NCBI GenBank assembly: GCA_002099625.1
Contig: GCA_002099625.1_4857.1
Length of the DNA: 64,000 nt
Source of the DNA: Escherichia coli
GTDB taxonomy: Bacteria > Pseudomonadota > Gammaproteobacteria > Enterobacterales > Enterobacteriaceae
Strand: one strand, 5' to 3'
This document shows, piece by piece, positions 6,756 through 63,649 of this stretch. Under the pieces are notes generated by a model. That model ran no database searches. It worked only from the letters and a program-made list of their open reading frames with translations, and was not told where the DNA came from. A program made the translations under genes and the position numbers. The stretch's first letter is position 1. Every line of letters begins with the position of its first letter.

Positions 6756-9500
6756 ATGGAAGATATTAGTAAATTAACGGGCGACCCCGCGGTAGCTGCC
6801 ATACTGCGTAAGTCCACGAGCCCGTCGGCTCAGCAGCAACGCGGTAAGCGTGAAGATGGCGGCGTTACACCAACCCGTACAGAACTCACGGGCATTGCGA
6901 GTAGCCGCATTCGCACCGTTAAAAATGCCGAACGTATCTTTGATGCGCTCCCTGAGTTAGAGGTCATTGTTACCATCGCGACCTCCTCACTCCTGTCCAC
7001 AAAAGATTTGATTAACACCACGCTGATTTACGACAACGTGGCTGATATCCCGATCGACCTGCGTCAACAGTTGTTGGAACCTGTGCGTGAATTCCATGAC
7101 CACACGCGCCAGTTACCCAACAAACTGTATCAGTGGATTTACGATGCACTGAAATCCAAAGGCGCGAGCCCGGTGTTGCTGATTTCAGATACCGGATTCG
7201 ATGAACTCTTCGGCTTAAAGCCGTCTGTTGCAACCGAATCGTTGCGCCGTAGCCAATCTGACTTCTTTGAACGTCAGTTGGGTATCCTGGGCAAGATTGG
7301 CGGTGAAAACAAACCGAAGGTTGGTGTAGAAAGTATTCTGGGCCGTGCACGTGGCGCTGACAAGCCCACCAAGCCACAAACCATTAAACTTAACTTTGCA
7401 GCAGCCCCTAACAGTCCGTTTAAAGCAGACGGTATGTTAGCTTCCCTGGATATCGTTATCACCGACAACCCGCGTATTACCCTGCTACCAGAGGCTTATC
7501 GCCGTGTGGCACAGGAGAATGCTCGCACCGGCCTGTTCGGTCAGTTAGAGCAGTACGCATATGAACAACCTTCTACGCCGACAGGTGCGTCAGAGTATAA
7601 CGCTGACCAGTTCACAGACAGTGAACAAGAGAAGGCAAAACTCGGTTTAATCAACATCGGCGACCTCAACGAAGCGTACCAGAAAACGCCTGAGCAAAAG
7701 CTTTACGGCGAAGTACCGAAGATGAGTTTCTCCGATGCCAACAAAATCGAATACACGGAACGATTACTGCCAGCAGAGTCCACACTCCCGCTCGTTATCG
7801 GCGACGATGTTCGTAACCCCATAGGTTATCTGGCCATCGTTGACGAAATGGGTAACTTCATTAACTCGCGCTCCACACTTTACGGTGATGCGAACTTCAT
7901 GAACTACCTGAACAACGACGGTATGGTGGATTCAACAATCAACCGTGCGAATCTGGGGATGGGCAACACAACCCGAATCACACCAGACATTGCTAACCGC
8001 TTAACAGCGCGTTATGGTGAAATTGCTGAAGACCAGCTAACCAAAGCTCTGGGTGAGGCGTTGGGTGGTGCTGAGATTAGCATGACAGTAACCGAAACGT
8101 TCAGCCGTATCATGCTGGCGCGCCATCTGGCAAAACGTCATACGCAGGTTATCTATATTCCTGCGGAAAACCTTTGCTATTTTGCCACGGACTTTGATGA
8201 AGATGGTATCGGTGTATCTATTACCGAACGCTCGTTCGTTATCTCTACTGTCCGTATGGCGCTGTTGTTCGCTACCATGAACTCTGCGGTGTTGAACTCT
8301 GCACGTCACATGCAGTACGACATTGAGTTGGCACCAGATGACATGAACGGTCAGAAAACAATTGACCAGCTGAAAACAGACATCATGAACTCCTATAACC
8401 GTCGTCAACCGATGTGGGGGGACATGAACGACACCTGGGCAATGACGACAAACGCAGGTATTGCGTTTAACGTTATTGGTAACGACTACTACGGTAGTAC
8501 CAAAGTGTCTGTGTCGGACACTACGCCGGATTATAAATACCCGGATAAGGATTTCGACGAAGGTCTGTTACGACGTACTTGTCACATCGCAGGTGTTGAC
8601 CCTGACCTGGTAATGACCCCCGAGAACATCGAGTTTGCTTCACAGATCTTCTCTAAATCGTTACTGGTCACCCAGCAGGTTGTTAAGAAGCAAGAGATTC
8701 TCTCTAAGCCACTGACACGTTACGTAGTTAATGGGATGTTGGCCTCTCCGTCGTTGCAATCAGCGATGATTAAAATCATTGCAGAGTACATCAATGCTAA
8801 CGGCAATGGGATGACTACTGACCAGATTACGAAAAAGGTCTCTGAGTATCTGGCTGCGTTTATCAACGGTATGAAAGTAACCTTACCACCGCCAGACACC
8901 TCTGCAGCAGCTTCGCAGATGGAGCTGTTCGATAAACGTACGGAGTTCTTTGAGAAGCTGGCTGATCTGGTTGTAACGGATGACATTGCTGCGCAACTCC
9001 AGCAAGAAGGTATCTCGATGGACCCGAACGATCTGAAGACGATGATCAAATCCTTCTATACGCGCAACTGGCTGCGTAAACAAGGTATTGAAACCGACTT
9101 CTTCGATCTGGTTTACGACGATGATTCTCGTCAGGACAACATCACCATGATGACTGATGAAGCGATGGCTGCTTCGAAAACGCTGATTCAATTGGCGAAA
9201 CGTTTCACCGGGCGACTGGAAACGTTAGCGAAGAATGCCGACCTTGATCCTAACGATGCTTCCGGCGGATTCGGTGGTGGTTTTGATGCGGGCGGTGACA
9301 CCGGCGGTGGTGATGGGGATCTCGGCGGTGGGGGTGACGATGATTTAGACCTCGATCTCGATACGGATAACGGCACCGGTGGTGATAGTACAGAGGAAAC
9401 TACTGAGTCGACCGAAACCACGGAAACAACTACCGAGGGAACGGAAGGCACAGAAGGCGGTGAAGGAACTACCGACGACAACCCAGACAACGTCCTCTAA
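6756..9500 (+). CDS. hypothetical large protein (914 aa) with acidic Gly/Asp/Glu/Thr-rich low-complexity C-terminal tail; possibly virion-associated
   Basis: ATG with GGAGA 5 nt upstream; last ~75 aa are GGFGGGFDAGGDTGGGDGDLGGGGDDDLDLDLDTDNGTGGDSTEETTESTETTETTTEGTEGTEGGEGTTDDNPDNVL; followed by a strong bidirectional terminator. Confidence 0.6.
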   Translation: MEDISKLTGDPAVAAILRKSTSPSAQQQRGKREDGGVTPTRTELTGIASSRIRTVKNAERIFDALPELEVIVTIATSSLLSTKDLINTTLIYDNVADIPIDLRQQLLEPVREFHDHTRQLPNKLYQWIYDALKSKGASPVLLISDTGFDELFGLKPSVATESLRRSQSDFFERQLGILGKIGGENKPKVGVESILGRARGADKPTKPQTIKLNFAAAPNSPFKADGMLASLDIVITDNPRITLLPEAYRRVAQENARTGLFGQLEQYAYEQPSTPTGASEYNADQFTDSEQEKAKLGLINIGDLNEAYQKTPEQKLYGEVPKMSFSDANKIEYTERLLPAESTLPLVIGDDVRNPIGYLAIVDEMGNFINSRSTLYGDANFMNYLNNDGMVDSTINRANLGMGNTTRITPDIANRLTARYGEIAEDQLTKALGEALGGAEISMTVTETFSRIMLARHLAKRHTQVIYIPAENLCYFATDFDEDGIGVSITERSFVISTVRMALLFATMNSAVLNSARHMQYDIELAPDDMNGQKTIDQLKTDIMNSYNRRQPMWGDMNDTWAMTTNAGIAFNVIGNDYYGSTKVSVSDTTPDYKYPDKDFDEGLLRRTCHIAGVDPDLVMTPENIEFASQIFSKSLLVTQQVVKKQEILSKPLTRYVVNGMLASPSLQSAMIKIIAEYINANGNGMTTDQITKKVSEYLAAFINGMKVTLPPPDTSAAASQMELFDKRTEFFEKLADLVVTDDIAAQLQQEGISMDPNDLKTMIKSFYTRNWLRKQGIETDFFDLVYDDDSRQDNITMMTDEAMAASKTLIQLAKRFTGRLETLAKNADLDPNDASGGFGGGFDAGGDTGGGDGDLGGGGDDDLDLDLDTDNGTGGDSTEETTESTETTETTTEGTEGTEGGEGTTDDNPDNVL

Positions 9501-15671: not shown

Positions 15672-17969
15672 TTAGCCGCCAGCGCCTTCACCGCCAGTAC
15701 CTGGCTGGGTACCGCCGCCAACATCACCAGCATTACCACCGTCAGTACCGCCGGTACCGTTGGAAGTAGTAGTGACGTTGAACGCCAGTTTCTCTTCCAC
15801 GAACTTGGTGATACCTTTAATCCAGATCAGACCAGTGATCGGGCAGTGGCAGATGTGCGCGTTACGAGGCTGTACTGCCAGCTCTTTGCTGGTAGCGCCG
15901 TTACGCTGGATGTTGATGTTGGTTACCATGATCGGAGACCAGAAGTGGTTACCCCAGTTCAGAACACAGTAAGAACCATCATCAGCGGTTGGAACTTTCA
16001 GAACCCACTGCAGGCGGCGAGTCCAGCTGCCGTCAGCTTCGTTCTTCACACGCCAGCGGTCATCGTTGGTGGTGATAACTTCGTACTCGTAGCGATCGCC
16101 CAGCAGACGCTGGTCACCCTGAACCAGCAGCAGCATTGCAGCAGTCGGTTCGTCAGTTGCGATAACAACTTTCGGCAGTGCGTTCGGGTCCGCAGTCAGC
16201 AGGCGCAGAGCCGGCATGAAGCGAGAGTCCTGGATAGCACGAGTTACCTGGTCACCGATACGCTGTACCAGACCCTGACGGGCGTTGATGAGCGCATCTT
16301 TGGTATCCAGAGACTGGATCACTTTGTCCACTTCGTAGTCGCTTTCGCTGTACCACGGAGCAACCCAGTGACGGCCCAGGCCGCGGATAGCAGGTTTGTC
16401 CCACGGAGTGATCATGGACGCAGCTGCGTTCTTAACCGCTTCGGTGTAAGACAGAGTCTGAGTGATAGCCAGCATTTCGTTACGGATGTTAACCGCAGAA
16501 ACGAGGTCGTCCAGACGTTCGGTGTCGTCGTATTCAACGCCAACCGGAGATTTGGTCATGATCGGAGAACCGTACTGCAGTTTGTAGTTCTCTTGTTCCC
16601 AAATCGGGTCGAGCAGAAGGCCCTGGGTTCTCCGGTTCTCGTTGGTACGAGTACCGTCGAAGCGCCAGCCCAGCAGCTCCAGTTTCAGGTTGTCGATGAT
16701 CACTTTACCGGTGCCGCTTTCGATATCAACAGCAGTACCAGTTGCGTCGTACAGACCTTCGATTTCCAGAGACGGTGCAGTCACGTCAACACGACCAGAG
16801 AACTGACCGTTGGTGAACAGAGACATGCTGATGTTCATGGAATAACGAATGGTGTAATCGTTCTGTGCCAGAGCGGCCAGTGCCGGGATTTCAGCACCTT
16901 TCCAGTCCAGAGACTTGGCGTTCAGGGAGAACACGGTGCGACGGAACTGCAGGACCAGCTCACGGCCATCACCTTCAGGAGGACGCTGGAAAGTAGCGAA
17001 CTGCATGTCGCGTACGTTCAGTTTGATCAGCGCACCATCTTTCGCTTCTTCGGTCGGCTTACGCACAGACAGCAGCAGGCTACCCAGCGCCGCACCCGGT
17101 GCGATTTCGTCGGTTTCATCGTAACCTTCCTGCACGATACCCGGATGGGCAGACAGCTGGAACAGGTTCAGACGACGTTCAGAGAAGCTCAGGTAGTTGG
17201 TCGGATACGCCGGCACACGACCCAGCTGAACGTTTTCGTTTTCGATGATGTCTTCGGATACGAAGAACTTCGCGTTCTCGCCGGTTTCCATCACGTAAGG
17301 AACGATACGGATAGCATCGTCCTGCAGGACTTTGTGGTTAGACAGCGCGTTATGCAGCGGCTGACGGTTGTCTTCAACCACGTCTTTGGTCAGCAGGGCG
17401 TTCAGGATACCACGAGTTACAGTAGTAACTTTGGTACGAACGGTGATGCCGACGTCGTTGGTGTCCACAGTGATGGTCGGGAACAGGGTTTCTGCAAACT
17501 TGGATTGAGTTTCCAGAGCACGCACGTTCAGCGTCCAGGTCAGACCCAGGTTTTTGTCCAGGTCTTTGTTGGTGTAGTATTCGGTTGCGACCAGCGGAGT
17601 TTTACCGTAGTCAGCAGCCAGAGATGCTGCACCGGAAATAGCGATCGGCATGTAGCTGGCATATTCCGGCTTCGCGCTCTCAGCAGCAACACGGGTCATG
17701 AAGTCATCTTCGTGACCGGCAGCAGCCAGAATCATCGCAGAAGCAACCTGAGCAGCGTGGCTCATGGTTTTGCCAGGGTTTACAGCTTCGTAGTGCTGCT
17801 GAGCAGTGTCACGCAGGTTGGTGAAGCCGGCAGCATTTTTACGTACAGATTCGCCAACGGCTACGGTTTGCCATACGTCATTAGCGGAAGAGCCTGCCTT
17901 GGCAGCAGCGACCAGAGCATTGCCCTGCTGAACCAGCTGGTCCAGACTAGCGATACGGGTATCTTTCAT
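15672..17969 (-). CDS. putative major capsid protein (765 aa) with Ala-rich propeptide-like N-terminus and Gly-rich C-terminal tail; tail sheath is the alternative
   Basis: Strongly host-like codon bias (CTG, CGT, GGT, AAC dominate), own strong terminator, size in the range of phiKZ-type capsid proteins; N-terminal ~130 aa contain several S/A/G-x-E sites (AGHE, VGE, VATE). No homology search done. Confidence 0.45.
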   Translation of the reverse strand: MKDTRIASLDQLVQQGNALVAAAKAGSSANDVWQTVAVGESVRKNAAGFTNLRDTAQQHYEAVNPGKTMSHAAQVASAMILAAAGHEDDFMTRVAAESAKPEYASYMPIAISGAASLAADYGKTPLVATEYYTNKDLDKNLGLTWTLNVRALETQSKFAETLFPTITVDTNDVGITVRTKVTTVTRGILNALLTKDVVEDNRQPLHNALSNHKVLQDDAIRIVPYVMETGENAKFFVSEDIIENENVQLGRVPAYPTNYLSFSERRLNLFQLSAHPGIVQEGYDETDEIAPGAALGSLLLSVRKPTEEAKDGALIKLNVRDMQFATFQRPPEGDGRELVLQFRRTVFSLNAKSLDWKGAEIPALAALAQNDYTIRYSMNISMSLFTNGQFSGRVDVTAPSLEIEGLYDATGTAVDIESGTGKVIIDNLKLELLGWRFDGTRTNENRRTQGLLLDPIWEQENYKLQYGSPIMTKSPVGVEYDDTERLDDLVSAVNIRNEMLAITQTLSYTEAVKNAAASMITPWDKPAIRGLGRHWVAPWYSESDYEVDKVIQSLDTKDALINARQGLVQRIGDQVTRAIQDSRFMPALRLLTADPNALPKVVIATDEPTAAMLLLVQGDQRLLGDRYEYEVITTNDDRWRVKNEADGSWTRRLQWVLKVPTADDGSYCVLNWGNHFWSPIMVTNINIQRNGATSKELAVQPRNAHICHCPITGLIWIKGITKFVEEKLAFNVTTTSNGTGGTDGGNAGDVGGGTQPGTGGEGAGG

Positions 17970-17981
17970 TTCAAGTTTACC

Positions 17982-18506
17982 TTATTTAGATAAATGACAT
18001 GCGTACAACTGCGTCAGCACTTCGTGCGCAGCAAACTGCGTCGACGTACTGAACGTATCATCCACGACACGAGTCTTGGGACGCATATATTTAAAAAGTT
18101 CTGCGCAGAACATCTTTTTCGCAGCGTGGTCTTCACTTAAAGAAAAACCCGGTCCGGATTTAGCTTCTGCAAAAGACGCCACAACAACATCGCCACGTTG
18201 TGAGAACACCCAACGTAAACGACCGTCGAATGATTCCCCATATAAATCAGCAAGGGTTTCATTCGTACCTTTCTCAACCAGGTTTAAGACCTGGTCATAA
18301 TAAAGAGTCGGAAGTGCAGGTGGTGCCATAATCGATTTATAAATCGAAATAGGGTCACTCACTGGCAGTATGATGGAACTAAAGCCCGACGAGCAGTCAT
18401 ATAACCAGTTAAAGAAGCTTGCTTGGAGTTCCTCCAACTTTTTAACGCCAGCCCCTTTATCTATGTTAGATTGAACTTCCCACGGTGGACTAAAACGAAT
18501 TTGCAT
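17982..18506 (-). CDS. hypothetical protein
   Basis: Track ORF extends to 18560 and overlaps the divergent plus gene; the ATG at 18506 (MQIRFSPPWEV...) with GGAG about 10 nt upstream is the likelier start. Confidence 0.45.
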   Translation of the reverse strand: MQIRFSPPWEVQSNIDKGAGVKKLEELQASFFNWLYDCSSGFSSIILPVSDPISIYKSIMAPPALPTLYYDQVLNLVEKGTNETLADLYGESFDGRLRWVFSQRGDVVVASFAEAKSGPGFSLSEDHAAKKMFCAELFKYMRPKTRVVDDTFSTSTQFAAHEVLTQLYACHLSK

Positions 18507-26882: not shown

Positions 26883-28359
26883 TATCGGCTCCTCTGATGG
26901 CTATAATCGTGGTATTAAATTGCGTCAACAGGACACGGCGATAGAACTTCGTGATTTCATCAATCACACTTGGTGGTAACACAGGTTTATCCCACCACCA
27001 ATCCGGGCAATCCCAATCTGGGAATAACCACTCAATAAGCACTTTTGCCGCTTTTGGATAAAGATGCAGTGGCCATAAGTCCAGATTACGCCAGTCGTGT
27101 ATTGCCGACTCTGTTAAGTAGTACGCTTTCTCGACATGAACTTCACGGTTACGTAGCGAGAAGACACCGTTTTCCCAATGGTAGAAACGTGGTTCAATGA
27201 TTTGACCGTTCTCGAACAACTCCATACGGATAATGCCCGTCTGACCTGTCGGGTCTATCGTGCGGCAGTGTTCAATATAAGGAACCACCTCAGCGTTCCA
27301 AACATACGGCAGGTCGTCAATGCTACAAACTTCAGGATCGGTCATGTTTTCTTCACCGAATGCTACATCGGTGCCGAACACATGCAGAAGCTTTGCTTTT
27401 AGCGGCGAGTGTGTACGTTCAAACTGTTCTGTCGGTGACAGCAGATACGGTAGGCGTAAGAACTGGCGAGATTCATTAATCCACCAAGTACCGTCAAGGT
27501 TCTTTTGCTGTTGGTGACGTTGCACGCCCTCTTCATTACTCACAAACGGTGGGTCTATCTCAGGCCACCATTCATCAGGCAACGGTGTCTGGTTGATGAT
27601 GTACGGGTAGGTAATCACCACCTCTTCGGGTCGCTGATATGAGAAGCGTATAACGAAGCTGGTCTCGTAATGGTTTTCGTCGTTATCCCAGGTAGGAGAG
27701 ATAACATCGTAAACCGTCTCGATACGGGTTGGTGCGTAGCGTACCGCTAAGACATTCTGACCACCGGCGACATTACCTGTGGTGAAAACGTCTGGTGTGA
27801 AGTGCGCCTTTAGATAATCTTTAAAGTCGTCGTACTTCGGCACACGTGTCCCTGCGGCGATATAGCATTCGTTCAATAGCTTAAGCGCGGGCTTTGGAAT
27901 CAGGTAGTACGCTTCGGATTCCGTCATGGTCGAATAGCGACCCATGTCGATAAGTGAATCCAGGCGGTTCGCCCAACGTAACAATTCGTCGCGTGATGGG
28001 CCGACACGCCGGAGCGTGATGGTCACGTTATACATTACGCGGACAGGAGCAGCGCGTACTTGGTCTTCGGGATTATGGAAGAATGGAATCTCTGCCGCTA
28101 ACCCAACTTGACGGTTAATGCGTGCGCGTTCATCACGTTCTTCTTCCACTTCGACGTAGACACGGTTCGGTGCTGAATAGTCCACCGGTGTCTCATCGCC
28201 GAGCGTAGAGCCTGGCTGATGGGCGGTGTTGAAGCTATCCGTGAAAACAACACTGGCACGTTCAATACCAGATTCGTTTAGCACACGTTCTACGACGCCG
28301 TCGACCACAGCTTTGCGCATGGTCTTGTCCAACGACGGAATTTCAAAATACTGTTGCAT
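26857..28359 (-). CDS. hypothetical protein (500 aa)
   Basis: Long ORF on coding strand; Trp-rich N-terminal region. Confidence 0.55.
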   Translation of the reverse strand: MQQYFEIPSLDKTMRKAVVDGVVERVLNESGIERASVVFTDSFNTAHQPGSTLGDETPVDYSAPNRVYVEVEEERDERARINRQVGLAAEIPFFHNPEDQVRAAPVRVMYNVTITLRRVGPSRDELLRWANRLDSLIDMGRYSTMTESEAYYLIPKPALKLLNECYIAAGTRVPKYDDFKDYLKAHFTPDVFTTGNVAGGQNVLAVRYAPTRIETVYDVISPTWDNDENHYETSFVIRFSYQRPEEVVITYPYIINQTPLPDEWWPEIDPPFVSNEEGVQRHQQQKNLDGTWWINESRQFLRLPYLLSPTEQFERTHSPLKAKLLHVFGTDVAFGEENMTDPEVCSIDDLPYVWNAEVVPYIEHCRTIDPTGQTGIIRMELFENGQIIEPRFYHWENGVFSLRNREVHVEKAYYLTESAIHDWRNLDLWPLHLYPKAAKVLIEWLFPDWDCPDWWWDKPVLPPSVIDEITKFYRRVLLTQFNTTIIAIRGADNAQGEQEG

Positions 28360-28395
28360 TAGCTGTCCCTCGTTGTAGTCATATCACTGGCCTAA

Positions 28396-28430
28396 AACGC
28401 AAAAAAAAGAAAGGGAGCCGAAACTCCCTT
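28396..28430 (-). terminator. intrinsic terminator downstream of 28437..28766
   Basis: Hairpin AAGGGAG-ccgaaa-CTCCCTT (28411-28430) followed on the minus strand by TCTTTTTTTTGCGTTTT. Confidence 0.65.
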
Positions 28431-28436
28431 CGTGTT

Positions 28437-28766
28437 TTAGTGGGCCAGCCAAGCTAGCTGCCACTTCTTACATTTTATTCCGCTGTGTCCAACCGGATTG
28501 CGGATAATGTCCATCGTTTTCCCGACAACGAATTCAATCATCTTGTCTGATAGCATTTTACCCATCGCGATAGAGAGGGCCGTAACCTGATCAGGGTCAT
28601 CGATGTACGCATAGACCGGCTCATTACTGCCGAAGATAAGATAGAAGGAACCCTCGCAGGCCACGATTGAGGTCAGTGGCACGATGCACCCGGTATACAC
28701 TCTCGCCAGTTCAGCCGCTTTTGGGGTTACTTCCATTACGTAACCCTTAACAGATTTCTTTTCCAC
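28437..28766 (-). CDS. hypothetical protein
   Basis: 109-aa ORF immediately downstream of the DHFR gene. Confidence 0.5.
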   Translation of the reverse strand: MEKKSVKGYVMEVTPKAAELARVYTGCIVPLTSIVACEGSFYLIFGSNEPVYAYIDDPDQVTALSIAMGKMLSDKMIEFVVGKTMDIIRNPVGHSGIKCKKWQLAWLAH

Positions 28767-28767
28767 T

Positions 28768-29319
28768 TTAAACTCCAGCGATACGATTTAAAATTTGATA
28801 CGTCCAACGGTGCGTGTGTTTCTGGCCGTCGGGTAAATGGGTCATGGTGTAGTCGACTTGAAAAACATCTCTGTCGATTTCTGGGAAGAAAGCATCGGCA
28901 CCTTCAACAGCGATGTCAATACGCGATAGATAGATACGATCCACTCGAGCGAGGGTTTGATGATAAATTGATGCGCCACCAATAATCATCACCTCTTGCT
29001 CTTTCCCGGTATCTTTCTCAATACGTTCCAGAGCTTTGATAGCTAAGTCAATACTCGTGTGATACGTCACCAAACGCATGTCCGTGTGTTCTTCCCGGCC
29101 ACTAATATAAGCTTCTGGGTTACGAGTAACGATTAAGTTACCGCGGTTAGGCAAAGGACGACAACCTAACGATTCCCAGGTCTTACTACCCATGATAACG
29201 TTCTTCCCTGTGGTAATTGCCTTAAAGTTAGCCAGGTCGGCAGGCAGACGCCACGGCAGTTCATTGTTTTTACCGATGGCATTGTTGCGGTCCATCGCGA
29301 CGATAATAGAGAGTTTCAC
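28768..29319 (-). CDS. folA: dihydrofolate reductase
   Basis: 183 aa; IVAMDRNNAIGKNNELPWRLPADLANFK... and VIMGSKTWESLGCRPLPNRGNLIVTR... match the canonical DHFR N-terminal half (compare E. coli FolA [32 protein letters not shown]...[21 protein letters not shown]), plus MIIGGASIYHQTLARVDRIYLSRID. Confidence 0.85.
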   Translation of the reverse strand: MKLSIIVAMDRNNAIGKNNELPWRLPADLANFKAITTGKNVIMGSKTWESLGCRPLPNRGNLIVTRNPEAYISGREEHTDMRLVTYHTSIDLAIKALERIEKDTGKEQEVMIIGGASIYHQTLARVDRIYLSRIDIAVEGADAFFPEIDRDVFQVDYTMTHLPDGQKHTHRWTYQILNRIAGV

Positions 29320-29687
29320 GGTTTGCTCCTACGGGCTTTAGATAATTCTTTCATTGCGTGGCGTAAATGGCGACTAAATTCAAGACGGCTATACGAGAAT
29401 GTCACCGGATAGTCCAGAATCACCGACAGTGATACCGTTCTGGCATCCACATCGACCAACAGACTGTTCGTACAGCAACCTGCAAACATCCCACCACCAA
29501 CCAACGGCCTCTTAAGCCTAATAGTTAGCGTGCCAAGCCATTCCCTGTCGCCGAGCAGCAACAAGGCCTCTGCCAGGTCTTCTTCAACTATCGCTAGACA
29601 GTATTCGTCATCTCGTACACGGAGGCGAATCTGCGGTTCTACGTTTGCGGTTTCTGGCATCATCTCAAATTTAAATTTATCGGTCAT
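29316..29687 (-). CDS. hypothetical protein
   Basis: 123-aa ORF, ATGA-coupled to the DHFR gene. Confidence 0.5.
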   Translation of the reverse strand: MTDKFKFEMMPETANVEPQIRLRVRDDEYCLAIVEEDLAEALLLLGDREWLGTLTIRLKRPLVGGGMFAGCCTNSLLVDVDARTVSLSVILDYPVTFSYSRLEFSRHLRHAMKELSKARRSKP

Positions 29688-29693
29688 CTCACA

Positions 29694-29727
29694 ATCCCAA
29701 AAAAGAAGGTGGCTTGTTAGGCCACCT
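29694..29727 (-). terminator. intrinsic terminator downstream of 29735..30280
   Basis: Hairpin AAGGTGGC-ttgttag-GCCACCTT (29705-29727) followed on the minus strand by CTTTTTTGG. Confidence 0.55.
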
Positions 29728-29734
29728 TATTAAA

Positions 29735-30280
29735 TCATTGAACCATACGCTGCGCGTCGTAAGACGGTGCGAGGTTCACAACACGACCATGTAGAGTTTG
29801 CTCTGCTTCGTCTAACAGGTCATCGCGTACGAGCGTCTGGCGAATGTAAAGCGTTGCCCGTATCCCCTCAGCGCTGTAAGGCGCGGTGACCATTTTGGTC
29901 TGGTAACCTTCAATCGTCACCGGAACACGCTCGCCATTACGACGAACAAAATGCTCCAGCTTACCGTAATCGTGACTGCAGACTTTAGACATGTCAGACA
30001 ATCCCGCATCGATTAAGTATTTCCAAAGACTGACGATGCCTTCTGAGCAATGTTTGTTAAGTTCACCTTCGACGACAAACTCGTACCCACCGTACGTTAG
30101 AATGTGCGTGCCTGCTGAACGACGGTCACATTCTAAAATGAACACGCCCAGACCAATCATAACCGGACGTGGGATTGTCATGACACTGGTACTAAATTGC
30201 AGCGTAGTAACCTCATCCCAAAGGGGCGATGATTTGTCGTTGCTTACACTAATAACATCTTTGAGATTGACACGTTTCAT
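29735..30280 (-). CDS. hypothetical protein
   Basis: 181-aa ORF on coding strand. Confidence 0.5.
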   Translation of the reverse strand: MKRVNLKDVISVSNDKSSPLWDEVTTLQFSTSVMTIPRPVMIGLGVFILECDRRSAGTHILTYGGYEFVVEGELNKHCSEGIVSLWKYLIDAGLSDMSKVCSHDYGKLEHFVRRNGERVPVTIEGYQTKMVTAPYSAEGIRATLYIRQTLVRDDLLDEAEQTLHGRVVNLAPSYDAQRMVQ

Positions 30281-30338
30281 TATAAATACTCCTTACGATT
30301 AATGGTCGATTACATACGGTTTCAGGCTAACGTAATAT

Positions 30339-31100
30339 TTACGCTGCTGGTTCTTCAGCGGTTTTCACTTCAACTGGTTTCATCAACGAGTTCGCACAGT
30401 CGAAGATAGCATCCAGGAAACCACGGAACGGCTTCATGGCTTCACGCTGGGCGTTCTGACGTTCTTCTTCAATTGCTTCTTCTTGCGCCTGAATTTCTTC
30501 AGCAGTCAGCTCTGGGTGTTCCGTCATGCTTTCTGCCAGGGTCATCACTTTCGGCTGCGCATTCAGAATCGGAATACGGCGGATGACCTTGGTGATATTC
30601 CCGAGCTTCATGCCACCCAGCATGGTATCGAACAGCGTACCGAAATCTTGCAGTGGGTCTTCGCTGATTTCCAGTACCGCCGGAGTCGCAACCAGACCAA
30701 AGGCAATGACCAATTCAACGGCAGTGTCAGTGACGTGCGCAGCGAACGGGGTGTCTTCCATCTGCAGGTAATTGTTGCCATTATAGGTCACCGGAATGAA
30801 TTTGATTTCTTCCCCTTTCTTCAGTCGCAGTGTATCGACTGCGGCTTTGTACTGAACTTCGTACAGTTCCGGTTTAACACCGTCAACGTTATCCAGTGTA
30901 AAGAGCAGGTCACCAACCGCCATACGGCGCGGCAGTTTGCGTTTGTTGATTTCGCGCAGCCAGACTTGTAAGCCGGTGAATTGAATTGGGGACAGTCTAA
31001 TTTTAAAGCCGTTGGTTGCTTGCAGGATAGCACCGTCGTCTTCGCTACGTTCGATAGAGCCATTAGCCAGAGTAAGCAGATTGATAGTTTTCATTTTCAT
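30339..31100 (-). CDS. hypothetical protein
   Basis: 253-aa ORF; first gene downstream of the second copy of the 24-bp promoter motif. Confidence 0.5.
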   Translation of the reverse strand: MKMKTINLLTLANGSIERSEDDGAILQATNGFKIRLSPIQFTGLQVWLREINKRKLPRRMAVGDLLFTLDNVDGVKPELYEVQYKAAVDTLRLKKGEEIKFIPVTYNGNNYLQMEDTPFAAHVTDTAVELVIAFGLVATPAVLEISEDPLQDFGTLFDTMLGGMKLGNITKVIRRIPILNAQPKVMTLAESMTEHPELTAEEIQAQEEAIEEERQNAQREAMKPFRGFLDAIFDCANSLMKPVEVKTAEEPAA

Positions 31101-31145
31101 ATTCCTTAAGTAATGGTCAGTTAGTAAAGCAAATCATTGTTTGCT

Positions 31146-31169
31146 CACCTAGGTAATATATATCTGAAA
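31146..31169 (-). promoter_or_regulatory. conserved element CACCTAGGTAATATATATCTGAAA (copy 2 of 2), putative phage promoter
   Basis: 24/24 identity with 22641-22664; lies between the terminator 31187-31227 and the ATG at 31100, about 45 nt upstream. Confidence 0.5.
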
Positions 31170-31186
31170 ATTATTGTAATCGGAGA

Positions 31187-31227
31187 CAAAAAAAGAAGAG
31201 GTAAATCCCCCACCGAAGTGGGGGATT
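31187..31227 (-). terminator. intrinsic terminator downstream of tandem paralogue A
   Basis: Hairpin AATCCCCC-accgaagt-GGGGGATT (31204-31227) followed on the minus strand by TACCTCTTCTTTTTTTGTC. Confidence 0.65.
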
Positions 31228-31238
31228 CGCCAGTCTAA

Positions 31239-32498
31239 TTACTTAGACTTTTCATACGCACCGATACCAGCGCTGATGTAGCCGTTAACGCCGGCGATCA
31301 GGTTTTTCTGGCCAGTTGCAACGCAACGTTCGGTCCAGGAGATGTACTGGTTCGCAACGGTGATTGCACGACGCGCAACACGGACGTTGGAAGTCAGTTC
31401 AGCATTGTCATCGATCTTCACGCCGTCGATACGTTTCAGCAGCGCCTCAATAGCCCGCTCGTACGATTCTTGAGCCTGGTTATTTTTGTGGTACGCTTTC
31501 ACGTTCTCTTCGACTGCTTTACCCAGCTGGTTGAAGAACGCAACCAGAGAAGACAGCGTCTGAGCAGACGGAGTAGAAACAGATTTTTCTACGCTGCCTT
31601 CAGCATCGATAACGGTGAAGGAAGCTTCCAGGTCATCCCCGTTCACTTTCACGTCAGCTTTACCGATCTGGTTACCCAGCAGTTGAACTTCGCCCGCTTT
31701 GCCTGCAGTGGCTTTGTTAACCGCTGCTGCGAAGCCGCTGTTCAGTTTGCCGCCTTCAACTGCGCTGACCATGCTGGTTGCAGCTTTGACCACTGCATCC
31801 TGCTCGCCGTAGATGCTGCCGATAGTAGACAGAACACCTTTCAGTGCATTGATGTCGTCACCAACAAACTTACCACCGGTGGTCAGGTTCTTAATGAACC
31901 CACCGCTAATGGTGTCTTTCTTCTGCTTGCCCAGGCCACGCAGAGCCGCGTCATATTTCTTAGCGCGCGCCTGAATGGATTTACCCTGGTTGCTGAACTT
32001 GAGCCAGCGATCTTTGATTTTACGGCCTTGTTCTTTCAGCCAGTCGAAGATACGCTGCAGGAACGCTTTGATGTCGTCCCACAGTGATTCGCGAGCAACC
32101 TGACGGCGTTTACGTGCGCCGTAAGATTCCTGCGCAACGCTTACGCGGTGATCAAATGCCCAACGTTTACGGATAGATTCCTGCGCAACGTCCAGCTGCT
32201 CAGCAGCTTCGTCAGGCATATCTTCTTCCACTTCCATTGGCTCTTCGCCATCTTCGCCTTCACCGTCAGCGGCGGCTTCAGCAGCATCAACTGCATCCAG
32301 CTGTGCATCAGTTTCGTCACCGTCTTCTGCCAGCACGTCTGCTTCTGCGTCCAGCTGGTCGATCGGTTTGGTGTCATGCTCGATGTCAGCCAGAGTACCT
32401 TCCACGGACTCAGCCGGCAGCTCGATACCATCTGGAACGACAGTGCCTGCGCCTTCGACAGATTCACGAGCGAGTTTACTTTTTACAAAGTTTGCCAT
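31239..32498 (-). CDS. abundant alpha-helical Ala/Lys-rich protein, tandem paralogue A (419 aa); candidate internal head or scaffold-like virion protein
   Basis: Strong codon bias; N-terminal 15 aa (MANFVKSKLARESVE) and C-terminal AGIGAYEKSK identical to the neighbouring gene; acidic N-terminal ~105 aa ending VAQE then basic SIRKRWA. Confidence 0.6.
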   Translation of the reverse strand: MANFVKSKLARESVEGAGTVVPDGIELPAESVEGTLADIEHDTKPIDQLDAEADVLAEDGDETDAQLDAVDAAEAAADGEGEDGEEPMEVEEDMPDEAAEQLDVAQESIRKRWAFDHRVSVAQESYGARKRRQVARESLWDDIKAFLQRIFDWLKEQGRKIKDRWLKFSNQGKSIQARAKKYDAALRGLGKQKKDTISGGFIKNLTTGGKFVGDDINALKGVLSTIGSIYGEQDAVVKAATSMVSAVEGGKLNSGFAAAVNKATAGKAGEVQLLGNQIGKADVKVNGDDLEASFTVIDAEGSVEKSVSTPSAQTLSSLVAFFNQLGKAVEENVKAYHKNNQAQESYERAIEALLKRIDGVKIDDNAELTSNVRVARRAITVANQYISWTERCVATGQKNLIAGVNGYISAGIGAYEKSK

Positions 32499-54102: not shown

Positions 54103-56208
54103 TTACAACTCAATTACCACAGCGGCTCCTAGGTCATCGTACAACGATGCCGGGATTTTGTACTCGGTATAAAAACCAACGCGATCGATATTCCCCTGCT
54201 GTCCTTCAAACAACAACATCGGAATTGCCGAGCGCAAACTAATGAGCGTGTTGTGATCGACAAACCGTTTCCCGGTGGCATTAGTAGAATCCTCACTGTC
54301 AAATCCTACTGCCGGGAACGGATTGGTTGGCGACTCTACACGAGATATCGCCAACATAATCGCAATATGCGTCATCGGTATACCACTCAGCTTACGCTGG
54401 ATATACTTAAACGTGTCCATCAACGCATAAGTACACTGTTTCTCTGTAGCACCACCCATCTCAACCAACGTCACTGGTTTCACACGACCTTGTTTCTTGT
54501 TCAGCTTCACAGTCGATGCCGTGTTGATGATTTCCACAATGTCTTCGTTCTTATCGGCAGCAATCGAACGGAGCTTGGTTTCTAAGCCGGCTACGAACTC
54601 TGCCATCGATTCAGAACGGTTGGTGTAGACCAGGACCGGGTGTTTCGGGTTCCATCCTTTTAAGGGGATTTCTACTGTCTTCTTCTCGATACGAATGTTC
54701 GCTCGTTGTTTCAAGAAGTAGTGCAGGAACGGTTTAGAGAAGTTCCCACAAACACCCATTCGCACATCGATAGAATCCGCAGCGATTATCTGCCCATCTT
54801 CTAAACGACGTTGGAAAGTTAAGTCGGTGATTTCTGGTAATGCCGTTTCATCAATTGCATCGAGATCTTCATGATACGCAATCTGGCTCAGCTCCGAATA
54901 AATTTTGTCGGTAACAACCAACTCGTATTCTGACCAATTCCCACGCTGTGGTTTTGGCAGCAAGCACAACCCTTTCAGAGAGTTATGTTTGTATTCGGTC
55001 ATATACTCACGCATACGTGGGGTGAGTACCAGGTTGAGCAGATAACGCAAGAAGTCAAGGTGCTTGGTAGAGAGAATTCCCTGTGTACCCTTTTCCGAGA
55101 TGGACGTGGACGCCAGGTGACCTGGTGACGTACCTTCAGAGAGGTTATAAATCAAATCCCCCATACAGGTCGCACAGATGGACTGATTCGCCATCTCTTT
55201 ACAGGTCATGGCACTACGGAAGACCAGCGGTTTGCCAACCAGGTCTGCGTATCCACCTTTCTCAAATCTCAACCACGGACCATTATCGCCTTCTAAACGA
55301 TAACGCATCCCCACCATCGCTTTATAGGCACGCTCATCCAGCTGCGTATCCTTAAACGTGTAGCGGTGTGCGTGAGTTGTACCGCAGTCGTCGTACGTGA
55401 AATACATCAGTACGTTTGCTGCCAACTGCAGTTTACGTGAGGCGTATTCTGCTTCGGCAATCTTGTCAGTGTTGTACAAGTGGGAACGTGAAGTTGCACC
55501 GGATTCTTTCAAACGCGAAATAACCGAGTGCATTCCGGTAAAGAAGCCTTCCCACACCTGATTGGTGTATACACGTGAGTCAATTTCTGACGTTTTACCA
55601 CGCACGAAGGCTTGCAGTACCTGGTTCATCTTCACAGTACCGTCCAGTACCGACATCACGACCGGGTTATACCGTAGCGCAGGGTCTTTGAAGATTTTCT
55701 CGATAAGCTTGTACGCTTCTTCAACCATATCCTGACCATCTTCATCGTAGCCAGTAGGGTATTGCACTTCCCACTGACGGATGAGTTCGAAGTTCGGGTG
55801 GTCGTAGATCTCCATCATCGTATCAAAGTCGATTGTCGTACAATAGGACAGCAAGTTCTTCACTGTCATGTTGAACGCATCGGCGTAGACATGTTGACTC
55901 AGGATATAACGCGTTTCAGCAAGGTCGACACCTGCTTTACGGGCCAGTACCGCTGCTTCCGACATAAAGTCCAGATGCAGGTCATCTGTTGCTACCTGAC
56001 CTGGACGATACGCCATGGTCGATGGAGTGGGCACCTGCGGATACAGACGCGACACACCCCAATACGGCCAGCTGAGTTTGATGTGGCGACTAGACATTTC
56101 CAACGACTTACCATCGTCGAATGTCACGTAATAACGCCCGCGTAGTTTCCACACCTGATCAGAGTTAAGCATACGCAAATCACGTACGTGTACAGAACGA
56201 CCCGCCAT
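54103..56208 (-). CDS. hypothetical large protein (701 aa); possible RNA polymerase beta-prime-like C-terminal fragment
   Basis: TAATG overlap with the RNAP beta fragment gene; EKGTQGILSTKH weakly resembles the beta-prime trigger-loop motif GTQLTMRTFH. The RNAP assignment is tentative and the NADFDGD motif is absent. Confidence 0.5.
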   Translation of the reverse strand: MAGRSVHVRDLRMLNSDQVWKLRGRYYVTFDDGKSLEMSSRHIKLSWPYWGVSRLYPQVPTPSTMAYRPGQVATDDLHLDFMSEAAVLARKAGVDLAETRYILSQHVYADAFNMTVKNLLSYCTTIDFDTMMEIYDHPNFELIRQWEVQYPTGYDEDGQDMVEEAYKLIEKIFKDPALRYNPVVMSVLDGTVKMNQVLQAFVRGKTSEIDSRVYTNQVWEGFFTGMHSVISRLKESGATSRSHLYNTDKIAEAEYASRKLQLAANVLMYFTYDDCGTTHAHRYTFKDTQLDERAYKAMVGMRYRLEGDNGPWLRFEKGGYADLVGKPLVFRSAMTCKEMANQSICATCMGDLIYNLSEGTSPGHLASTSISEKGTQGILSTKHLDFLRYLLNLVLTPRMREYMTEYKHNSLKGLCLLPKPQRGNWSEYELVVTDKIYSELSQIAYHEDLDAIDETALPEITDLTFQRRLEDGQIIAADSIDVRMGVCGNFSKPFLHYFLKQRANIRIEKKTVEIPLKGWNPKHPVLVYTNRSESMAEFVAGLETKLRSIAADKNEDIVEIINTASTVKLNKKQGRVKPVTLVEMGGATEKQCTYALMDTFKYIQRKLSGIPMTHIAIMLAISRVESPTNPFPAVGFDSEDSTNATGKRFVDHNTLISLRSAIPMLLFEGQQGNIDRVGFYTEYKIPASLYDDLGAAVVIEL

Positions 56209-58475: not shown

Positions 58476-58490
58476 AGATAATATCTATCT
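58476..58490 (-). promoter_or_regulatory. conserved 15-mer AGATAATATCTATCT (copy 3 of 5), in a 66-bp divergent intergenic region
   Basis: Exact 15-mer; 30 nt from the minus-strand ATG at 58445 and 21 nt from the plus-strand ATG at 58512, so it could serve either gene. Confidence 0.55.
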
Positions 58491-58872: not shown

Positions 58873-60240
58873 TTAACGTAAATTAGCTGATGAGAATGGT
58901 AGGTTGCCTAAACTGCTGCTACTTCCGCCACCTAAACCACCCAGACCACCTAACACGTCACTACTCCCTCCTAAGAGGTTGGTGCTACCGCCGCCCAACT
59001 GCGTGCTACCCCCCAAGAGATTATTACTACTTCCCAGCAAACCAGAACCCAGACCACTTTCTTTCGTCACCGCATTACCACGCAGCGCCTCACCGAGAGA
59101 CAGTTCTTTAATTGTCCCTTTCGGTAAATGGCCGTTGTTCTCACGCAGCGCTTCCTGAATCTTCGGTGCTAACGCATTGAAGCTATTAGCTGAAGACGCC
59201 TGTTGCGCTTTCTTCGCACGGAAATAGTTTACCGGATCGTTGAGATCAAGATTTTCCTGCGGAGCTTGTTGAGAAGCTAAAGCAACGACCGGCTTTGTGC
59301 CGGCAGGTGTACGCCCGATACGGAAATCCGTTGCGGTGGTGTCTGTTGCCTGATCGGTGCGTGGGCCGGTATTATACGGCAGAGTTTGGATAACGTTATC
59401 ATAAACGCTCATGTTATCCAGTTGGCCAATCCATTCTTCTTCTAACGGACGCAGTGGAGTGTGGTCACGCAGACCACGAACCACTTGATTGTAGTTGGTC
59501 ACGTATTGTGCCCAACCGCGTGCCAAAGAACCGAAGTACGGACGCGGATCGTTAGAACCCGTAACCGAAGGATACCAACCAAACACTGCAGTGAGCAGGT
59601 TAAAGATAATGACCTTATCCTGCTTACGCTGGAGCTTGGCACCGAAGAATGTTGCCGTACCATCCAGCGACTCTTCTTCAAACATGTGTTTGTAGTTCGC
59701 CACACGGATATATTTGATACCTTCAATGGTCATATCGCTGGAGATGAAGATACTGGTGATCTTTGTCTTTTTATCTTCTTCCAGCAACCCGTAAACGTAG
59801 TTCTTCACTGCGTGCCAGCTCTGAACCAGTTTCTTATCCATCGTTGGATCTTTCAGGTCAGCACAAACCACATCGCTTAAAAACTTCTTGTACGCTGCCA
59901 GACGGATATTTTTTCCTTCGGCTGCTGTTTCCAAAATCGCATCGATTAACTCGAAGCTTTTCAGGAAGAGGTTCGCGTTGATGGCTTTCTTCAGGAAACG
60001 AATCGTTCCAGATTCGCCAGCCAGTACCGATTCACACAGTGGGTGGAACGCATGACATTCACTACCTTCGTCATCTTCCAACCCACGCTTAATCATCGCT
60101 GCAGTTGGAAGCACCAAGCGGCGCTTCACTTTGTTGTAGGTGAACATTGCCGGATGACCATCATCGATAGTCAGCATGTCACCTTCGAATCCGTATCCGA
60201 GCGAGGTCAGAAACGAACGGTAGAATTCAATCAATTTCAT
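58873..60240 (-). CDS. hypothetical protein with Gly/Leu/Ser-rich low-complexity C-terminal tail (455 aa)
   Basis: C-terminal ~60 aa GLGSGLLGSSNNLLGGSTQLGGGSTNLLGGSSDVLGGLGGLGGGSSSSLGNL... Confidence 0.55.
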   Translation of the reverse strand: MKLIEFYRSFLTSLGYGFEGDMLTIDDGHPAMFTYNKVKRRLVLPTAAMIKRGLEDDEGSECHAFHPLCESVLAGESGTIRFLKKAINANLFLKSFELIDAILETAAEGKNIRLAAYKKFLSDVVCADLKDPTMDKKLVQSWHAVKNYVYGLLEEDKKTKITSIFISSDMTIEGIKYIRVANYKHMFEEESLDGTATFFGAKLQRKQDKVIIFNLLTAVFGWYPSVTGSNDPRPYFGSLARGWAQYVTNYNQVVRGLRDHTPLRPLEEEWIGQLDNMSVYDNVIQTLPYNTGPRTDQATDTTATDFRIGRTPAGTKPVVALASQQAPQENLDLNDPVNYFRAKKAQQASSANSFNALAPKIQEALRENNGHLPKGTIKELSLGEALRGNAVTKESGLGSGLLGSSNNLLGGSTQLGGGSTNLLGGSSDVLGGLGGLGGGSSSSLGNLPFSSANLR

Positions 60241-60252
60241 GGTTAATAATCC

Positions 60253-63634: not shown

Positions 63635-63649
63635 AGATAATATCTATCT
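63635..63649 (-). promoter_or_regulatory. conserved 15-mer AGATAATATCTATCT (copy 5 of 5), putative phage promoter
   Basis: Exact 15-mer 34 nt upstream of the ATG at 63600. Confidence 0.55.

Follow-up and report, generated by a model that had tools for sequence, protein, structure and literature searches.

A FolA-type dihydrofolate reductase gene and two clade-restricted orphan genes within the head and neck gene block of an SPN3US-like jumbo phage

Introduction

In phage T4, the genes for dihydrofolate reductase (DHFR; frd) and thymidylate synthase (TS; td) are adjacent, and the early phage DHFR supports a ThyA-type TS. The underlying biochemistry is established: a ThyA-type TS yields dihydrofolate together with dTMP, and DHFR regenerates it using NADPH. 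DHFR and classic TS also co-occur across jumbo phages (PMC7824862), where both count as 'soft-core' genes, and all SPFM phages carry DHFR, TS and thymidylate kinase (PMC6614189). Early promoter motifs have likewise been described for several jumbo phages, with TATATTAC in phiKZ, the predicted promoter TTTRARR_BTATATTACDWHDGTG in 201phi2-1 (PMC7058600 Table 2) and a mapped early consensus of AAATATATATTAT-(6N)-G in AR9 (PMC5312081).

Here, we analyse a DHFR locus in a 64,000-nucleotide stretch of DNA (the window), which belongs to an SPN3US-like Seoulvirus and shares 96-97% nucleotide identity with Salmonella phage SPN3US and its relatives. A first-pass annotation, made from the sequence alone, had described a DHFR in an operon with two small proteins and suggested that these might be partners in nucleotide metabolism.

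Results

The three minus-strand open reading frames (ORFs) are orthologues of SPN3US gp57, gp58 (DHFR) and gp59, and they lie exactly where the first-pass annotation had placed them (Table 1). All are under purifying selection among Seoulvirus genomes, and are therefore no chance ORFs. SPN3US (JN641803 / NC_027402) and about 30 other Seoulvirus genomes carry the orthologous locus with an identical three-gene order and, as in the window, with matching internal-head and neck genes on either side, although SPN3US has an additional gp60 (196 aa) between gp59 and gp61 that the window, SPLA3 and the SPFM phages do not have. The locus is already known, and more than 30 GenBank records carry annotation for it.

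Table 1. Features of the DHFR locus and its surroundings, in window coordinates; pN/pS values are pooled over 7-8 Seoulvirus genomes.
Feature	Coordinates	Strand	Basis
Terminator-like hairpin with 8-U tract at the end of the cassette, ahead of the neck gene (gp61 orthologue)	28410..28431	-	pattern scan; -12.6 kcal/mol, z=-3.0
gp59-like orphan gene, 109 aa, GTG start	28437..28766	-	phrog_17656, pN/pS 0.16
FolA-type DHFR gene, 183 aa, GTG start	28768..29319	-	PF00186, FolA alignment, pN/pS 0.07
Predicted coupling junction: AGGAG (29330-29326), 6-nt spacer, DHFR GTG (29319-29317) over gp57-like TGA (29318-29316)	29316..29330	-	read from sequence
gp57-like orphan gene, 123 aa, ATG start, predicted to be translationally coupled to DHFR	29316..29687	-	phrog_9893, pN/pS 0.14
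Hairpin and U-tract directly upstream of the gp57-like gene	29706..29728	-	pattern scan; -12.3 kcal/mol
gp56-like gene, 181 aa	29735..30280	-	phrog_12369 E=1.9e-83
gp55-like gene, 253 aa, first gene of the predicted unit	30339..31100	-	phrog_18643 E=1.5e-101
Putative early-type promoter motif TTCAGATATATATTACCTAGGTGA	31145..31168	-	exact 24-mer repeated; conserved in relatives
Strong terminator-like hairpin with U-tract at the end of the internal-head-protein gene (SPN3US gp54 orthologue)	31203..31228	-	pattern scan; -22.8 kcal/mol, z=-5.5

The identity of the central gene, which the first-pass annotation had called with confidence, is supported far beyond chance by PF00186, which aligns at profile positions 2-159 of 159 with E=3.4e-47 and scores 160.5 bits where the cut-off is 25, by phrog_316 (E=5e-52) and by 149 PDB DHFR sequences matched at E<1e-10. 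An alignment with Escherichia coli FolA, which is consistent with the PDB DHFR matches, gives 41% identity over residues 3-179. The equivalents of FolA Trp22, Asp27, Phe31, Thr46, Arg52, Arg57, Gly95-Gly96 and Tyr100 (E. coli numbering) are kept, and Thr113 is replaced conservatively by Ser. Judged by its profile match and active-site residues, this is a complete FolA-type enzyme. It differs from E. coli FolA by two insertions of together ~20 residues, around residues 70-80 and 97-105, which occur in variable form in related phage DHFRs; since they vary in both length and sequence, they are not informative as a clade-specific docking site, and we rejected that idea.

The deposited records of SPN3US, SPLA3 and JN03 start DHFR at an internal ATG (175 aa). 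Homology supports instead the upstream GTG or TTG, overlapping the preceding gene, as the probable start, and several deposited annotations would accordingly cut off the first β-strand, a correction that is a modest but useful output of this work. The same three records start gp59 at an internal ATG (99 aa), whereas homology supports the upstream GTG; residues 4-11 of the gp59-like protein, ahead of the database start, form a β-strand in its model.

An HMM search of the two flanking ORFs, as proposed by the first-pass annotation, assigned both to families but to no function: the gp57-like protein matches phrog_9893 (E=3.6e-46, positions 2-119 of 119) and the gp59-like protein phrog_17656 (E=1.5e-54, positions 2-111 of 112), both PHROGs of 'unknown function', and neither has a Pfam, NCBIfam or PADLOC match. 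AlphaFold gave confident models for both, the gp57-like protein with a pLDDT of 81.9 and a pTM of 0.71, as a β-β-α-4β-α fold, and the gp59-like protein with a pLDDT of 81.6 and a pTM of 0.76. Profile searches of the PDB with both alignments returned nothing credible, and Foldseek searches of the PDB with both models gave best E values of 0.3-0.5 and TM scores of at most 0.46; weak resemblances with a TM of about 0.45, to Borrelia OspE/Erp and MRP1/MRP2, are non-significant and were set aside. In the BFVD, the gp57-like model found family members alone (TM 0.70-0.85).

Sequence space gave a similar picture. Word-indexed homologue searches with the orphans returned close relatives alone, a search with the two families fused into one alignment brought in Erwinia-phage members of each, and an exhaustive profile search with the gp57-like family gave 11 matches among 1.84 billion representative proteins, all within the phage clade or marginal. 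The gp59-like family occurs in Seoulvirus and Erskinevirus genomes only; ORFs downstream in ChrisDB, Wellington and pEa11 were considered as remote members and rejected on comparison. A relationship between the two orphans was likewise rejected (hhalign probability 0.6%). In these searches, neither showed sequence or fold similarity to any known folate or nucleotide-metabolism family; by charge and pI both are near-neutral and soluble, with no nucleic-acid-binding signature. The two flanking ORFs encode genuine soluble orphans, and by these searches their families appear confined to the SPN3US-like phage clade. Conserved gene order and coupling are their sole link to DHFR.

The first-pass annotation had described DHFR as ATGA-coupled to the gene upstream. 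The 4-nt stop/start overlap is real, but it reads GTGA in the window; ATGA is the form found in eight related lineages. As ATGA, GTGA or TTGA, the overlap is conserved in 11 genomes and kept in four genera (Seoulvirus, Erskinevirus, Machinavirus and Wellingtonvirus), across which the gp57-like proteins share just 22-41% identity, a persistence that counts against the gp57-like protein being a generic accessory. In all lineages checked bar JN03, the gp57-like gene immediately precedes DHFR, and the DHFR start codon in SPN3US-type phages is a weak GTG or TTG. On the other side, the gp59-like gene follows DHFR as the first-pass annotation had it, its GTG lying 1 nt past the DHFR stop (TAA-A-GTG). 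The operon-like arrangement also held up, with overlapping or abutting genes on one strand and two terminator-like hairpin and U-tract sites either side. Together, shared strand, overlap and an AGGAG ribosome-binding site inside the upstream gene point to a translationally coupled gene unit.

The hairpin ahead of the gp57-like gene may act as an internal terminator, an attenuator or an RNA-stability element. Its position is kept in SPAsTU, pEa29, Wellington, pEa11 and Huxley, with differing stem sequences that include compensatory changes, and it is missing in Asesino and phiEaH2, where just 9 nt separate the genes. The strong hairpin behind the internal-head-protein gene has equivalents at the matching place in Huxley, ChrisDB, Wellington, pEa11 and CR5. 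Between these two hairpins, the gp55-like and gp56-like genes have no Pfam, NCBIfam or PADLOC match, the latter being matched by its PHROG alone. An Rfam scan of 28000-31400 found no THF riboswitch and no other RNA family.

Upstream of the gp55-like gene lies a motif with TATATTAC at 31160-31153, a predicted start G at 31146 and the gp55-like ATG at 31100. The window holds two copies of its exact 24-mer, against a chance expectation of 0, and the SPLA3 genome has six gene-sense copies of the exact TATATTAC core in promoter context. All 18 matches to a relaxed pattern are gene-sense, with 0 on the opposite strand. The motif is found at the matching position in Asesino, phiEaH2, SPAsTU, pEa29 and JN03, and in variant forms in Huxley, ChrisDB, Wellington, pEa11 and CR5. 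With its AT-rich core, downstream G, gene sense, intergenic position and repetition, it has the sequence features of the phiKZ-like early promoter class, and we infer that it functions as a promoter. Sigma-70 promoters, which have no relevance to phiKZ-like phages, were not enriched in a scan (7 against an expected 6.8). Separately, a relaxed-pattern copy at window position 58489 lies upstream of an RNA-polymerase-beta gene (56208-58445), which probably encodes a non-virion polymerase subunit, as no protein of such a size is among the SPN3US virion proteins.

Gene order is collinear throughout the gp53-gp64 block in these phages. The locus has the character of a hotspot for accessory genes. 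In JN03, a deposited phage isolate genome, an added 173-aa ORF stands between the gp57-like gene and DHFR; in SPAsTU, a different ORF, of 184 aa, separates DHFR from the gp59-like gene. The two inserts were compared as possible homologues and are unrelated. The gp60 slot, empty in the window, is variable among relatives, and Huxley has no gp59-like gene. In JN03, moreover, a gp57-like allele of SPAsTU type (41% identical) goes with a DHFR of SPN3US type, and the jumbo phage FLC6 has a DHFR without a gp57-like neighbour. In CR5 and Phobos (Derbicusvirus), the gp57-like gene and DHFR are both absent from the equivalent slot, a hint of more than chance neighbourhood.

The first-pass annotation had also tied its reading to thymidylate and dNTP genes elsewhere in the genome. 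Such genes do occur in the 97%-identical SPLA3 genome, which encodes a ThyA-type TS (PF00303, E=3e-113), a thymidylate kinase and a MazG-like gene, so this part of the reading stands; in these close relatives, however, the TS gene is no neighbour of DHFR, about 137 kb separating the two. Their genomes have no annotated nrd gene, and the phage dNTP pathway is therefore incomplete as annotated.

A place for DHFR in the virion, raised by the same annotation from other phages, finds no support in the proteomics of SPN3US, a 96%-identical phage rather than the exact window isolate: gp58 has 0 peptide-spectrum matches (PSM) in CsCl-purified wild-type virions, in supD and supF virions and in DNA-full heads (PMC7411985 Table S2). 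Three PSM were recorded in one prohead preparation, in which thymidylate kinase and Dam appear at similar trace levels; gp57 and gp59 are absent from the listing, and gp55 is not in wild-type virions but is seen in crude prohead preparations (PMC7411985 Table S2).

Discussion

We consider it somewhat more probable than not that this is a non-structural DHFR cassette within the head and neck structural block of an SPN3US-like jumbo phage, most likely expressed early, with orphans that may be generic accessories. DHFR itself is an ordinary nucleotide-supply enzyme, and of the whole locus just the upstream coupled orphan is mildly intriguing. Given established biochemistry and the intact active-site residues, DHFR would use NADPH to re-reduce the dihydrofolate released by the phage ThyA-type TS for each dTMP made, and would thus keep the thymidylate cycle going during replication of the 240-kb genome. 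Little of this is new: the pairing of DHFR with ThyA for nucleotide supply is recognised as 'soft-core' in jumbo phages.

As for expression, the nearest upstream promoter-like element is the phiKZ/AR9-type motif ahead of the gp55-like gene, and from this motif match we read a probable early timing of the cassette. Transcription would run through gp55, gp56, a leaky hairpin, the gp57-like gene, DHFR and the gp59-like gene to the terminator; read-through must be assumed, since the conserved hairpin and U-tract come after the promoter motif and before the gp57-like gene. By sequence, the GTGA overlap and the internal AGGAG tie DHFR translation to the end of the gp57-like gene. Bounded by conserved terminator and promoter signals, the cassette looks like a unit of early-type transcription set into a block of late structural genes.

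That the gp57-like and gp59-like proteins are generic early accessories, sharing the expression unit of DHFR but standing outside folate and dNTP chemistry, is the reading of them that we find likeliest, at about even odds. The main alternative, which we hold to be less likely though worth serious thought, takes the gp57-like protein as a dedicated non-catalytic partner of DHFR (a small subunit, stabiliser, regulator or tether to the phage's complex for dNTP synthesis), kept in fixed ratio by coupling, with the gp59-like protein as an optional third component. The overlap retained across four genera despite the divergence of the gp57-like protein speaks for it, as do the joint absence from the CR5 and Phobos slot, the conserved hairpin that is always upstream of the gp57-like gene and never between it and DHFR, and the weak DHFR start in SPN3US-type phages, which should depend on upstream translation. 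Yet conserved adjacency within a collinear block may be plain vertical inheritance, and the pattern of presence and absence amounts to roughly one evolutionary event. The two genes are moreover separated by the JN03 insert, the mixed alleles of that phage argue against allele-specific co-adaptation, the FLC6 DHFR does without such a neighbour, and the searches gave no folate or nucleotide protein as a homologue of the gp57-like protein. A bolder form strikes us as rather improbable: that the gp57-like protein, which has no fold neighbour in the PDB, is an unrecognised dedicated partner of viral DHFR, a small subunit or regulator whose ratio is fixed by the overlap kept in four genera, controlling DHFR stability or activity or recruiting DHFR to a phage nucleotide-synthesis assembly in cells where a phage nucleus surrounds the phage DNA. 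The gp57-like gene is in any case a clean, small candidate for an SPN3US amber-mutant test of whether a coupled orphan modulates viral DHFR.

Two further readings concern DHFR itself. A drug-insensitive enzyme of the trimethoprim-resistance type, carried as an auxiliary or resistance gene, would fit the NCBIfam search, in which type 3 DHFR and a number of trimethoprim-resistant Dfr families match best, and one relative's GenBank record is labelled 'dhfrIII / type 3'; it is nevertheless very unlikely, as the scores reach 121.6 bits against 168 for type 3 (NF008037) and 111 against 350 for DfrA3, far under all Dfr family cut-offs of 250-420 bits, and ordinary chromosomal FolA is equally close at 41% identity. 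Hardly credible at all is a structural virion component resembling the DHFR historically proposed for the T4 baseplate, with the small ORFs as assembly factors. Gene position invites that thought, with DHFR on one strand between genes for internal head proteins (PF12699) and neck or head-tail joining proteins (PF24214; PMC7411985), but the virion counts of zero, the trace in one prohead preparation and the unlisted gp57 and gp59 oppose it, and a cassette with its own terminator and promoter boundaries and an early-type motif is unlike what is expected of late structural genes. The idea of a virion DHFR can be set aside for the SPN3US-like phage group, and we return to the non-structural, probably early cassette as our preferred reading.

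Set against known systems, the DHFR shares with bacterial chromosomal DHFR/FolA (PF00186) the fold family, a full-length alignment and conserved substrate- and NADPH-binding residues. The putative promoter element of the window, ATATATATTAC-(6N)-G, matches the early (virion RNA polymerase) promoters of phiKZ, 201phi2-1 and AR9, the last core base being C in the window and phiKZ and T in AR9. Nothing in the SPN3US-like DHFR corresponds to the virion association proposed for T4 DHFR, and frd and td are adjacent in T4 whereas DHFR and TS are about 137 kb apart here; what the locus would have in common with T4 frd/td is a phage-encoded, probably early DHFR serving a phage ThyA-type TS for dTMP.

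Phage identity and gene neighbourhood

Judged by sequence, the window belongs to an SPN3US-like Salmonella jumbo phage of the genus Seoulvirus; over 4.4 kb around the DHFR locus it shares 96-97.6% identity with SPLA3, the SPFM phages, SPN3US, SEGD1 and others. The three minus-strand ORFs, with exactly the boundaries first annotated, are orthologues of SPN3US gp57, gp58 and gp59. Many genomes already carry annotations of this locus, whose DHFR is an ordinary enzyme.

Features of the DHFR locus and folate/dNTP genes of the relative SPLA3
Feature	Coordinates	Strand	Remarks
Two internal head proteins, phiKZ_IP (SPN3US gp53, gp54)			PF12699; upstream of cassette
gp55-like	30339-31100	-	unknown; upstream of cassette
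gp56-like	29735-30280	-	unknown; upstream of cassette
Hairpin+U-tract, upstream bracket of three genes	29728-29706	-	-12.3 kcal/mol
gp57-like	29316-29687	-	123 aa in SPN3US
DHFR (gp58)	28768-29319	-	
gp59-like	28437-28766	-	
Hairpin+U-tract, downstream bracket of three genes	28431-28410	-	-12.6 kcal/mol
Neck proteins gp61, gp62			PF24214/PF24215; downstream of cassette
Thymidylate synthase, ThyA-type	SPLA3 208,945-209,982		PF00303 E=3e-113, with insertion
Thymidylate kinase	SPLA3 105,838-106,461		PF02223
MazG-like pyrophosphohydrolase	SPLA3		by annotation only; not borne out by Pfam
Two radical-SAM proteins	SPLA3		annotation

SPN3US differs in having an additional gene, gp60, between gp59 and gp61, which is absent from the window. 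gp60 (196 aa, phrog_23313; 7635-8225 of the SPN3US locus L001) is carried between gp59 and the neck gene by SPN3US, SPAsTU and JN03, and its counterpart in Asesino is the C-terminal half of the 354-aa gp77; the slot is variable, and the window (~28360-28436), SPLA3 and the SPFM phages have no gp60 in it. The assemblies of SPFM1, 5-10, 12, 14, 15 and 20 (LR535901, LR535903-LR535908, LR535911-LR535913, LR535917) align to the region in no more than 20-40 short pieces, and the proteins predicted from them (P0004-P0008, P0012-P0016) are fragmentary or chimeric, which suggests indel-rich, low-quality assemblies and not real divergence. Elsewhere, a 715-aa ORF (15846-17993, plus strand) lies antisense to the gene for the 765-aa major capsid protein (15672-17969, minus strand), where the window reaches its highest GC content (0.546). 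Codon bias has most likely produced it as a shadow ORF.

A generic FolA-type DHFR

The DHFR call was sound: PF00186 is covered over its whole length (E=3.4e-47) and 149 solved DHFRs match at E<1e-10. Aligned to E. coli FolA (41% identity), the protein keeps the equivalents of Trp22, Asp27, Phe31, Thr46, Arg52, Arg57, Gly95-Gly96 and Tyr100, with Thr113 replaced by Ser. Its scores stay below cut-off for all NCBIfam DHFR subfamilies, those for trimethoprim resistance included, and it is best described as generic FolA-type.

Solved DHFRs align to the 183-aa ORF from its residue 3 onwards, which points to the GTG at 29319 as the true start, whereas the annotated DHFR of SPN3US (L001:8584-9135), SPLA3 and JN03 is a 175-aa product from an internal ATG, a form that would delete beta-strand A; several deposited annotations likewise give gp59 as 99 aa from an internal ATG. 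Homology points to the upstream GTG or TTG starts instead (DHFR 183 aa, gp59 109 aa), as do the conserved overlap and the AlphaFold model; the MET_P1, Proteus phage 7 and SPFM4 records already use these starts. Wellington gp71 (L015:4827-5345; MH426724.1 58322-58840), labelled 'putative diacylglycerol kinase', is actually a DHFR (PF00186 E=1e-48), and its label looks like a database misannotation.

A non-structural cassette with a distant thymidylate synthase

The first-pass annotation had raised a virion role for DHFR, against which the SPN3US orthologue speaks: by mass spectrometry, virions (wild-type, supD, supF) and DNA-full heads gave 0 PSM for gp58, a single prohead preparation yielded 3 PSM, a trace amount equal to that of thymidylate kinase and Dam, and gp57 and gp59 are listed nowhere (PMC7411985 Table S2). 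In contrast, gp53 and gp54 reach >600 PSM each and gp61 and gp62 35-44 PSM (PMC7411985 Table S2). The cassette is thus non-structural despite its structural neighbours.

The proposed company of other folate and dNTP genes was borne out in part. SPLA3, a relative at 97% identity, has in its full annotation a ThyA-type thymidylate synthase and a thymidylate kinase but no ribonucleotide reductase. ThyA is the synthase type that oxidizes its folate cofactor to dihydrofolate, which makes DHFR its logical companion; the two genes are not adjacent, lying ~137 kb apart. All SPFM phages carry DHFR, thymidylate synthase and thymidylate kinase (PMC6614189), and across jumbo phages DHFR co-clusters with classic thymidylate synthase (PMC7824862). 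In Burkholderia phage FLC6 (L009; LC592711.1 80215-81428), two tandem DHFR-like genes lie within a radical-SAM, Fe-S oxidoreductase and 2OG-Fe(II) oxygenase gene cluster, a context wholly unlike the SPN3US type that may be tied to the modification of bases or cofactors.

Two orphan proteins and their linkage to DHFR

Both small ORFs are under purifying selection, with pooled pN/pS over 7-8 Seoulvirus genomes of 0.14 for gp57-like and 0.16 for gp59-like (DHFR 0.07). Their products are soluble, near neutral in pI and unrelated to each other. AlphaFold models both with confidence: that of gp57-like (pLDDT 81.9, pTM 0.71) adopts a beta-beta-alpha-4beta-alpha fold that independent BFVD models of its relatives match at TM 0.70-0.85; gp59-like is modelled at pLDDT 81.6 and pTM 0.76. 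Neither protein had a match in Pfam, NCBIfam, PADLOC or a PDB sequence search, and Foldseek against the PDB returned no fold neighbour (best E 0.3-0.5). Their PHROG families, 9893 and 17656 respectively, are both labelled 'unknown function'. An exhaustive profile search with gp57-like gave 11 hits only in 1.84 billion representative proteins, and sequence, family and fold searches detected no relative of either protein outside the phage clade.

Gene order around DHFR by lineage
Lineage	Upstream of DHFR	Downstream of DHFR
Seoulvirus (window, SPN3US, SPAsTU, pEa29)	gp57-like directly, 4-nt overlap	gp59-like; in SPAsTU after an extra 184-aa ORF
Seoulvirus JN03	gp57-like not adjoining; unannotated 173-aa ORF between	gp59-like
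Erskinevirus (Asesino, phiEaH2)	gp57-like directly	gp59-like
Machinavirus (Huxley, ChrisDB)	gp57-like directly	no gp59-like (Huxley without one, ChrisDB with an unrelated ORF)
Wellingtonvirus (Wellington, pEa11)	gp57-like directly	no gp59-like; unrelated ORFs instead
Derbicusvirus outgroup (CR5, Phobos)	slot without gp57-like and DHFR	no gp59-like

Small partners in nucleotide metabolism had been suggested, and the distribution across lineages does fit a gp57-like/DHFR pair won or lost as a single unit, with a stop/start overlap that survives across four genera. We nevertheless consider it rather unlikely that gp57-like is a true DHFR partner: their co-presence amounts to roughly one evolutionary event, and these phages are collinear over the entire gp53-gp64 block. 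JN03 is moreover a mosaic, with a SPAsTU-type gp57-like allele (41% identical) beside SPN3US-type DHFR and gp59, and its insert is unrelated to that of SPAsTU. Together with the variable gp60 slot, this allele mix and these unrelated inserts argue for a locus that behaves as a hotspot of accessory genes, where 4-nt overlaps routinely form anew. Gene linkage by itself is no demonstration of a functional partnership, and the gp57-like orphan is the sole mildly interesting residue, as it combines the lack of a PDB fold neighbour with the DHFR overlap across four genera. The JN03 insert itself (L017:4378-4899, MT799840.1 ~59946-60467) has 4-nt overlaps at both ends and a weak phrog_33431 match only.

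Gene junctions and predicted expression

The ATGA coupling described in the first-pass annotation stands as a 4-nt overlap of the gp57-like stop and DHFR start, with an AGGAG inside the gp57-like gene 6 nt upstream of that start, but the tetranucleotide is GTGA; in 11 genomes it is ATGA (eight lineages), GTGA (SPN3US type) or TTGA (JN03). DHFR is indeed followed by gp59-like, whose GTG lies 1 nt past the DHFR stop, and the overlapping or abutting minus-strand genes between two hairpin+U-tract sites form an operon-like unit, as had been claimed. The upstream hairpin keeps its position in SPAsTU, pEa29, Wellington, pEa11 and Huxley, with differing, partly compensatory stems, and is missing in Asesino and phiEaH2; the interval from it to the gp57-like ATG is too short for a promoter. 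An Rfam scan of the cassette region (28000-31400) found no RNA element.

Ahead of the gp55-like gene, at 31168-31145, lies the exact 24-mer TTCAGATATATATTACCTAGGTGA, with a second copy at 22663-22640 (0 expected by chance). The exact core TATATTAC has six gene-sense, promoter-context copies in SPLA3, each ~65-90 nt upstream of a gene, and all 18 copies of a relaxed pattern there are gene-sense, with 0 on the other strand. This promoter-like family comprises two sub-types, GATATATATTAC-(6N)-G and GATAGATATTAT-(6N)-G/A, and its relaxed copies in the window start at 63648, 62232, 58489, 15590 and 14785 (minus strand). The copy at 58489 precedes an RNA-polymerase-beta gene (56208-58445) whose product is presumably a non-virion subunit, because SPN3US virion proteins list none of that size. 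All relatives, CR5 included, have the element or a close variant in this position, immediately behind the strong terminator that ends the internal-head-protein gene.

The cassette would then be expressed from an early-type promoter ahead of the gp55-like gene; in the simplest model, transcription would run from this predicted promoter through gp55, gp56, a leaky hairpin, gp57-like, DHFR and gp59-like to the terminator. The element agrees with promoters predicted for phiKZ (TATATTAC) and 201phi2-1 (PMC7058600) and with the experimentally mapped early virion-polymerase consensus of AR9, AAATATATATTAT-(6N)-G (PMC5312081); early promoters in phiKZ, too, are rich in AT and used by the virion polymerase (PMC10914365).
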